IMG/VR virus record: IMGVR_UViG_2903589935_000002 | Location: 6,066-70,065 of that record | DNA: 64,000 nucleotides | From: a virus | Taxonomy: Duplodnaviria; Caudoviricetes | Strand: one strand, 5' to 3' | Shown here: piece after piece, positions 33,549-33,680 of the stretch | Position numbering within the stretch: position 1 is the first letter of the stretch | Layout: every line of letters begins with the position of its first letter | Position numbers and translations under genes: made by a program | The notes under the pieces: generated by a model | Seen by the model: the letters and a program-made list of their open reading frames with translations, nothing else | Database searches by the model: none | Told to the model about the DNA's origin: nothing

Positions 33549-33557
33549 TGATATAAT
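33549..33557 (+). promoter_or_regulatory. Extended -10 promoter (TGnTATAAT) for candidate sRNA
   Basis: tgatataat is a perfect consensus match, facing a terminator ~120 nt downstream. Confidence 0.7.
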
Positions 33558-33563
33558 CGGAGC

Positions 33564-33680
33564 TGATCAGTAGCTCCATGGGTTATTGGTCTTTCCTCGA
33601 TACAGGGTTGGTCCCCTGTATCATTCCCGGTTGCTTTGGTCGGCGCCGGGGTAAAAGAACCCGCTTCGGCGGGTTTTTTT
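33564..33680 (+). ncRNA. Candidate antisense sRNA with three UUGGUC elements
   Basis: Promoter, AUUGGUCUUUCCUCG segment, two hairpins with UUGGUC loops and a terminator; no ORF fits inside. Confidence 0.65.
33653..33680. terminator. Bidirectional intrinsic terminator
   Basis: aacccgc-ttcg-gcgggtt with T run on + and a shorter T run on -. Confidence 0.85.

Follow-up and report, generated by a model that had tools for sequence, protein, structure and literature searches.

A predicted antisense small RNA opposite the PL leader of lambdoid prophages mirrors ribosome-binding sites scattered through the phage genome

Introduction

In phages P1/P7 (C4), P4 (CI) and N15 (CA), exposed RNA sequences pair at or near ribosome-binding sites (RBSs) and keep lytic functions in check in a way that does not depend on the main repressor. 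These C4-type RNAs are cut from the sense leader of the operon that they control, and each has one or two target sites close by. In lambdoid early regions, P22 sar and lambda OOP are made antisense as short RNAs that end at a terminator and act on the gene they overlap, and the T4 protein RegA acts at the RBSs of many phage early genes with a loose sequence preference. Here we analyse a 64,000-nucleotide stretch of DNA (the window) from a 70-kb lambdoid provirus record of the Serratia type, IMGVR_UViG_2903589935_000002. The part under study is its immunity region, where a small RNA (sRNA) of ~118 nt is predicted on the strand opposite the leader of a PL-like early promoter. We consider it likely that this one sRNA pairs with, and probably represses, five or more phage genes scattered over the genome.

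The reach of known phage regulatory RNAs is confined to the gene that they overlap or to one or two sites close by; here the RBSs of excision, recombination, replication-flanking and head genes are mirrored. Like C4-type RNAs, the window RNA exposes sequence complementary to RBS sites, which is a likeness of working and not of membership: Rfam C4 is absent among the 14 matches at E ≤ 10 on 33300-34100. Unlike C4-type RNAs, it is encoded antisense, on the strand opposite PL with a promoter and terminator of its own, and it matches five or more sites over 16 kb, in both early operons and a late module. With sar and OOP it shares being short, terminated and antisense within a lambdoid early region, but it overlaps a non-coding leader and its conserved complementarity is to distant genes. 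RegA offers a parallel for one factor at many early-gene RBSs, whereas the sites described here share 13-19 identical nt and are the mirror of an RNA. The c4 immunity RNA is treated in a review of phage sRNAs (PMC12197685), and OOP and sas are mentioned in PMC7067206. The latter also covers STnc6030 of the Salmonella prophage BTP1, an RNA expressed in the lysogen that excludes the same phage and whose escape mutants fall in a 36-bp stretch (PMC7067206). STnc6030 is likewise a prophage RNA with a short functional region, but it is ~786 nt long and antisense to late genes, with a single cis-type target and no repeated seed-matching RBS motif.

A further point of comparison is IsrB (isrB-1/isrB-2) of the Salmonella prophages Gifsy-2/Gifsy-1, detected as RNAs of 88 and 94 nt by Northern blot and primer extension and induced by starvation (PMC2330248). 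It is expressed from Gifsy-2 in the lysogen (PMC7067206) and was barely enriched with Hfq (4 versus 2 reads; PMC2515195). IsrB goes unmentioned in the 2025 review of phage sRNAs (PMC12197685), and no function for it was found described in the main texts searched; supplementary files may hold IsrB target lists. The RNA, motif, regulon and seed classes described below were likewise not found in the literature searched, and the genome paper of phage ZF40 contains none of the terms tried.

Results and discussion

An RNA gene opposite the PL leader

Every feature of the initial annotation was located at its given position when the sequence was read again: an extended -10, an unpaired seed, two hairpins and a strong terminator (Table 1). 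The PL leader is ~390 nt long, and the sRNA, encoded on its opposite strand, is complementary throughout to the leader segment it overlaps. The family model R1 scores 33557-33682 at 130.6 bits, and the sRNA region has a folding z-score of -7.45 with the terminator helix plainly visible. The 5' end was placed from the -10 and from alignment to the mapped 5' ends of IsrB (PMC2330248).

An exact 35-mer search yielded 17 IMG/VR loci whose leaders are nearly identical though their immunity regions differ, and a looser pattern search yielded at least 118; loci with two pattern matches carry one full RNA apiece. For comparison, 54 distinct 150-nt stretches were taken, with the chance matches L043 and L073 excluded. 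A TATAMT hexamer is conserved in 54 of the 54, as well as in the seed-variant loci L153 and L154 and in phage ZF40. RNAalifold recovers both hairpins as well as the terminator, and 14 of the 27 pairs that it predicts have changed on both sides. In a 43-sequence alignment of distinct relatives, including ones reached through the neighbouring protein, the proposed structure leaves 93.6% of cells paired, against 83.4% in shuffles (0 of 500 as high) and 42-48% when the structure is slid along the alignment. Compensatory changes occur in 17 of its 29 pairs, and in 8 of the 9 pairs of hairpin 1.

Wobble pairs distinguish the strands, as an A-C cell on the + strand is a G-U cell on the - strand. Read on the + strand, hairpin 1 has 20 G-U and 3 A-C cells, hairpin 2 has 82 and 3, and the terminator 7 and 0; canonical cells in hairpin 2 number 292 of 301 on + versus 213 of 301 on -. 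The helix at 33559-33577 shows the reverse (18 A-C and 6 G-U cells on +), and the asymmetry is similar on the 54-sequence set. Because the G-U pairs fit the + strand only, the strand of the sRNA is settled as +. Relatives retain 4-7 T on the + side, while the tail on the - side is often AGTTAC or TAATTTAC and not U-rich. The loop TTGGTC of hairpin 2 is invariant among relatives, although the search pattern did not impose it. The earlier claim of a + strand RNA gene is thus borne out by covarying hairpins, wobble pairs confined to +, a T run on the + side and a conserved -10, and we regard the predicted gene with its fold as well supported by comparison. The helix at 33559-33577 was itself rejected as a 5' hairpin of the sRNA: its wobble pattern assigns it to the sense PL leader, and the inferred sRNA start falls in its left arm.

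Hosts of the group are Serratia, Enterobacter, Raoultella, Citrobacter, Rosenbergiella and Pectobacterium, and the cultured phage ZF40 belongs to it. In the phage collection searched, only BUCT708/709 and ZF40 matched, and complete E. coli genomes held no match to the leader or to the two seed-variant RNAs. A short query of the RNA mostly retrieved generic terminator sequence.

Ribosome-binding sites complementary to the seed

The seed was initially described as complementary over 15 nt to two regions spanning a Shine-Dalgarno (SD) sequence and start codon, and over 13 nt to three more. Exact 15-nt complementarity is indeed present at 35380-35394 and 45885-45899, and 13 contiguous nt at 37735-37747, 29577-29589 and 32683-32695. 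With up to three mismatches allowed, the window holds 7 matches to the seed complement against 1.47 expected, a number that 0 of 100 shuffles reached; the seventh (61888-61902, 3 mismatches) looks like chance. The seed-complement motif GGAAAGACC occurs 8 times against 0.39 expected, and again 0 of 100 shuffles reached as many. All eight copies lie in the sense of local transcription: to the left of the immunity region there are five, on the - strand, and to its right three, on the + strand. Five stand at gene starts and three in the leader without a start codon.

PHROG and Pfam matches, together with gene neighbours, agree with the identities proposed for the targets, which are an excisionase, an exonuclease, replication-flanking genes and a gene of the head module (Table 1). 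The open reading frame (ORF) that follows the 72-aa gene matches Pfam HTH_36/DnaD_N. Duplex energies computed over the window for a 19-nt seed place seven sites ahead of all others (-31.8 to -23.2 kcal/mol): the five RBSs, the cis site and a single leader copy. Background begins at -19.9 kcal/mol. The leader copy at 33732-33740 is predicted to pair with the sRNA at -24.3 kcal/mol.

The pattern extends to relatives. Across 124 non-redundant related loci (1.18 Mb), GGAAAGACC occurs in 842 copies versus 6 of a reversed control. Copies on the sRNA strand are all found to the right of the immunity region (180 of 180); the opposite strand has 207 to its left, 446 in the leader and 9 elsewhere. An ATG or GTG follows within 5 nt in 487 copies, and motif positions are syntenic among the loci. 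A hairpin with a GACC loop (mostly CUGACCA) precedes the motif by at most 70 nt in 207 of 250 distinct target contexts, versus 126 of 3000 random 72-mers. Within the window, the CUGACCA-loop hairpins reported upstream of three targets are in place at targets 2, 3 and 4 (Table 1).

Seed and targets change together

The initial annotation had named a lack of covariation between seed and targets among the outcomes that would refute it. What was found are three classes of locus, with a table of seeds against motifs that is almost diagonal. Ten named genomes (five Serratia species, Enterobacter, Rosenbergiella, two Raoultella species and Citrobacter) were reached through the neighbouring protein and not the seed; 10 of 10 hold the seed core GGUCUUUCC and carry GGTCTTTCC. 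A model search of 151 Enterobacteriaceae genomes gave 6 matches, two of them with altered seeds. L153, with the seed GGUCUUGCC, has 7 copies of GGCAAGACC (four at start codons) and 1 canonical copy, and L154, with the seed GGUCAUACC, has 6 copies of GGUAUGACC (four at start codons) and 0 canonical ones; the reversed controls number 0 in each. Identity of the seed antisense to the targets in these two loci extends over 15-19 nt, start codon included.

At least 120 loci in IMG/VR have the second seed (UUG) and 33 have the third (AUA), and the three-class count covers 270 non-redundant loci. The 116 loci of the UUU class carry 794 copies of GGAAAGACC, 3 of GGCAAGACC and 11 of GGUAUGACC (14 for the two foreign motifs together). 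In the UUG class (119 loci) the same motifs number 11, 507 and 3 (14 together off the diagonal), and in the AUA class (35 loci) 3, 1 and 152 (4 together). The off-diagonal counts are close to what chance would give, by arithmetic ~9 per Mb with the two strands taken together. Among the UUG forms is the cultured Pectobacterium phage ZF40 (NC_019522), which has the matching motif where gp03 (excisionase), gp05, gp13 and gp16 begin. Smaller departures point the same way in only two lineages: the base before AGG is not G in 6 of 12 targets of phages with a departing seed versus 2 of 311 otherwise. Because seed and targets covary in three classes, we consider trans pairing of the predicted sRNA at these RBSs to be well supported. 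RNA and sites have changed jointly at least twice over hundreds of prophages, and the three natural orthogonal seed/target pairs could be used for swap experiments.

Could the hairpin-plus-RBS cassettes instead be module-boundary linkers, or simply a favoured strong RBS, incidentally complementary to the RNA and with no common trans factor? Copies do stand at module junctions, and these are mosaic phages in which one leader is combined with various immunity regions and the similarity ends within the first PL gene. Identity at every junction of one phage is not needed of linkers, yet it is present, and the sites switch together between classes that differ by one or two central bases, which should lie outside the GAGG pairing with 16S ribosomal RNA. 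This explanation therefore strikes us as extremely improbable.

How the sRNA may act

In the mechanism that we favour, the unpaired 5' part of the sRNA, with the seed UUGGUCUUUCCUC(G), would pair over 13-15 nt with SD regions of the form (C)GAGGAAAGACCA(AUG) and in this way target five or more phage genes, which belong to the two early operons and the head module. Ribosome binding would be blocked and the gene repressed, possibly with cleavage of the messenger RNA (mRNA) afterwards. A block of ribosome binding is the most likely outcome because the predicted duplex covers the SD and reaches the start codon, spanning the AUG itself in two targets. First contact may be made where the two UUGGUC loops pair with the (C)UGACC(A) loops of small hairpins that lie 10-40 nt upstream of most sites. 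The pairing evidence would be identical for an sRNA that activates or stabilises the mRNAs from the same sites, or marks processing sites, and the computed results do not give the sign of regulation. Such an outcome nevertheless seems to us very unlikely, given a duplex that lies over the SD; sRNA pairing over an RBS blocks 30S binding in known cases, and the upstream hairpins do not sequester the SD.

The leader copies deserve separate treatment. The RBS-type copies alter along with the seed in L153 and L154, and because of this they are probably real binding sites. They may serve as extra points of attack, or may soak up the RNA once PL fires. The GAAAGA-loop hairpin at 33694-33709, which also bears a motif copy, is probably a separate element, because it keeps GGAAAGACC in L153 despite the seed GGUCUUGCC.

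Several results sit uneasily with repression in trans by one sRNA, and we set them out together. The sRNA is known here from DNA sequence alone, from which we infer its transcription, and a scan for consensus promoters and terminators flagged neither its promoter nor its terminator. Reads of four sequencing sets compared with it were DNA-like contigs, together with four poly-A reads on generic terminator sequence, and are uninformative on expression. The scan presumably missed the promoter through its poor -35, and the terminator because extension of the stem across A/T tracts consumes the T run. With a 36-nt query, the duplex energies of the targets are not separated from background. Within the UUU class, covariation of the flanks is weak (mean extension to the left 2.71 versus 2.60 nt, to the right 2.12 versus 2.07 nt; 17 of 5000 permutations as high, uncorrected for relatedness). 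Gifsy-2 IsrB lacks the GGUCUUUCC seed, and no repeated complementary motif was seen in the 16 kb of its locus examined. The kissing contact proposed initially has a mixed record: the GACC-loop hairpins are conserved, as it would lead one to expect, while a strand test on 145 target-hairpin contexts (related sequences) did not favour the mRNA strand, the next pair outside the Watson-Crick core being A-C on the sense strand in 53, G-U in 22 and neither in 70.

The three-class table itself is open to another reading. Strictly, it says that all sense copies of the motif in one phage change together, and because the sRNA is antisense to one sense copy the table also fits a co-evolving protein reader. 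The GAGGAAAGACCA motif and GACC-loop hairpins would in that case be sense signals, either a translational operator or enhancer or an antitermination-type RNA site, read by a phage or host protein; the + strand RNA would be local to the PL leader and first PL gene, or a by-product. All copies are indeed in the sense orientation, three of them in a leader without a start codon, and the hairpin-type leader copy does not track the seed in L153. The leader hairpin GCCGG-GAAAGA-CCGGC and the GCGC-CUGACCA-GCGC hairpins seem to resemble boxB-type hairpins. A partner could be supplied by the conserved 99-107-aa family of the first PL gene, which adjoins the RNA in each of the three classes. However, the proteins examined yielded no RNA-binding candidate. 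Identity among the copies runs to 15-19 nt including the start codon, longer than is usual for a protein site, and hairpins 1 and 2 and the terminator carry signals confined to the + strand, which argues that the antisense RNA is itself under selection. On this evidence we think a protein reader unlikely, and we retain pairing of the sRNA in trans as the likely explanation of the sites.

The first PL gene family always stands next to the sRNA promoter, and distant homologues occupy this position in the other two seed classes as well. Its 105-aa product in the window matches no Pfam family, and its AlphaFold model (predicted local distance difference test score, pLDDT, 86.3), a small beta sheet with one long helix, has no Foldseek match in PDB at E ≤ 0.001. 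The C-terminal motif IQQLLCI(D/E)H is conserved. A 58-aa ORF at 29794-29970 was considered as CsrA-like and dropped, with no Pfam match at E ≤ 1.

What might such an RNA be for? It may act as a brake on leaky early genes in the lysogen, exclude incoming relatives of the same seed class, or both, possibly independently of the repressor, and would then form a second, RNA-based layer of phage immunity or exclusion. More tentatively, and with more doubt than belief on our part, the UUU, UUG and AUA classes could define groups of RNA-based immunity or exclusion whose borders do not follow those of repressor immunity. Were this so, the RNA of a resident prophage would shut the early genes of any incomer of its seed class, whatever the repressor type of the latter, and joint change of the seed and all targets would be a route of escape that explains the clean three-way split. 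The PL-leader copies would be a built-in sponge, with which the phage overrides its own RNA when PL fires to give a sharp switch, and Gifsy IsrB would be a reduced relative of such a system.

Kinship with IsrB

So, is the window RNA an IsrB? The initial annotation recognised no described family, a statement that no longer holds, as Rfam isrB (RF01386) is a borderline relative. An Rfam scan of the whole window at gathering thresholds gave no match. The best isrB match in E-value mode covers 33569-33679 (+) at 33.1 bits (E 4.9e-4), short of the gathering cut-off of 35, and its alignment spans model positions 1-87, the full model, with a 31-nt insertion that consists of the seed and hairpin 1. 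A Serratia rubidaea relative (L131) scores 36.3 bits, above the cut-off. Four further relatives (L148, L151, L138 and ZF40, here L309) have no isrB match at E ≤ 0.01.

The genuine Gifsy-2 isrB scores 99.3 bits at 5993-6080 (+), between STM1009 and STM1010 (both -); it sits in the gap between STM1010 and the exonuclease gene and runs antisense to each. In the reciprocal search, the top match of R1 in the 16-kb Gifsy-2 locus (5936-6083; 21.3 bits, E 0.0026) overlaps isrB. The two RNAs are alike in being short, in having a -10 and an intrinsic terminator of their own, and in lying antisense amid the leftward early genes of a lambdoid prophage; each has the hairpin loop GCUUUGGUCGG followed by a CCCGCUUCGG-type terminator. 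They differ in that the window RNA sits in the PL leader, whereas Gifsy-2 IsrB is upstream of the exonuclease gene, and in the 31-nt insertion that the window RNA alone carries. We conclude that the window RNA may be placed as an elaborated, borderline member of the isrB family, which offers a testable function for the IsrB group.

Other Rfam matches were set aside. The model of the CsrA-titrating RNA rsmX scored 27.3 bits against a cut-off of 56, in a match that rests mainly on the terminator, and the weak matches to istR, OrzO-P and isrK likewise rest on the terminator.

Table 1. The predicted sRNA, its candidate target sites and the surrounding immunity region, in window coordinates
Feature	Position	Strand	Basis or remark
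Extended -10 TGATATAAT, no good -35	33549-33557	+	Sequence
Predicted sRNA, ~118 nt	33564-33681	+	5' end inferred at 33563-33569; 3' end within U run
Seed ATTGGTCTTTCCTCG (as RNA AUUGGUCUUUCCUCG), unpaired, 15 nt	33585-33599	+	Complementary to RBS motif
Hairpin 1, 9 bp, loop UUGGUC	33599-33622	+	
Hairpin 2, loop UUUGGUC	33626-33650	+	Part in common with Gifsy IsrB
Intrinsic terminator: stem, UUCG loop, U7	33658-33680	+	
Target 1: hairpin and excisionase (xis) RBS motif CGAGGAAAGACCAUG	29575-29628	-	Gene 29353-29577; phrog_1266, E 5.8e-31
Target 1 upstream hairpin, GUGACCG loop	29612-29628	-	
Target 2: hairpin and RBS motif, 723-aa exonuclease gene	32682-32723	-	Gene 30509-32680; phrog_2489, E 1.1e-222
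Target 2 upstream hairpin, CUGACCA loop	32707-32723	-	
Target 3: hairpin and RBS motif, 72-aa gene before replication initiator	35347-35394	+	Gene 35393-35611; phrog_2465 (function not assigned)
Target 3 hairpin, CUGACCA loop	35347-35361	+	
Target 4: hairpin and RBS motif, 140-aa gene after DnaB-like helicase	37707-37749	+	Gene 37747-38169; phrog_4183 (function not assigned)
Target 4 hairpin, CUGACCA loop	37707-37721	+	
Target 5: RBS motif, 127-aa gene between scaffold/protease-like and major head genes	45862-45899	+	Gene 45898-46281
First PL gene, 105 aa	33222-33539	-	phrog_2479 (function not assigned)
PL sense-leader hairpin, just 5' of the SD of the first PL gene	33559-33577	-	Nearly invariant GATC
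Leader hairpin GUCGG-GAAAGA-CCGGC bearing motif copy	33694-33709	-	
Leader hairpin with CUGACCA loop	33715-33729	-	
RBS-type motif copy UUGAGGAAAGACCGGG in PL leader, no start codon	33732-33740	-	Candidate decoy or additional binding site for the sRNA
PL-like promoter TTGACC-17-TAATAT, downstream of repressor gene	33938-33966	-	Consensus scan
Repressor gene	34054-34512	-	Pfam HTH_31/HTH_3
YdaS-like Cro gene	34622-34855	+	
YdaT/CII-like gene	34916-35368	+	

Further observations on the RNA and its relatives

R1 also gives weak matches antisense to three target sites, at 45835-45923 (-; 17.9 bits), 37670-37778 (-; 12 bits) and 29550-29671 (+; 9.8 bits). They arise because those sites mirror the layout of seed plus hairpin, and no promoter or terminator was seen at any of the three. 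A second IsrB-like unit considered at 32681-32745 (+) was dropped, as R1 has no match there at E ≤ 10. A divergent match of 41 bits in L155 (G132) was set aside, with no clear repeated target seen. In Serratia aquatilis (L138, 3837-3984, -), a variant of the RNA has three hairpins ahead of the terminator, two of them with UUGGUC loops.

BUCT708 (OM816834, listed as a Stenotrophomonas phage) has the same layout at 3150-3750, with four exact copies of GGAAAGACC and more degenerate ones seen by eye. Its PL leader is longer, and its stated host stands out, the other named hosts all being Enterobacterales. In ZF40, the annotated gp08 (4701-5189, -) runs over the sRNA gene; a start ~200 nt further inward, right after the RNA promoter, would fit the homologues of the first PL gene.

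The GATC at 33566-33569, a Dam site, falls in the loop of the sense-leader hairpin and a few bases past the inferred sRNA start. L153, ZF40 and most of the 54 relatives retain it; the L032 type and L154 do not. Its position is such that it could tie the sRNA promoter to methylation state.

Further up the PL leader, at 33764-33780 (-), a conserved G+C-rich hairpin followed by AAUUUUUU looks like a terminator on the PL strand, which suggests early termination in the leader that would need to be overcome. Upstream of it lies a long hairpin (33800-33850, -) that is missing from some relatives. Four IMG/VR loci (L017, L025, L022 and L023) have the leader joined not to an immunity region but to GGTTCGAATCC, a sequence like the 3' part of a transfer RNA (tRNA). 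ARAGORN run on L017 and L022 found no whole tRNA at this piece, which may be an attachment-site remnant or mark a truncated prophage. Inside the exonuclease gene, 31964-32060 (-) encodes a Ser-Thr repeat run, STSTSTSTSTSTST, from a simple dinucleotide-like repeat.

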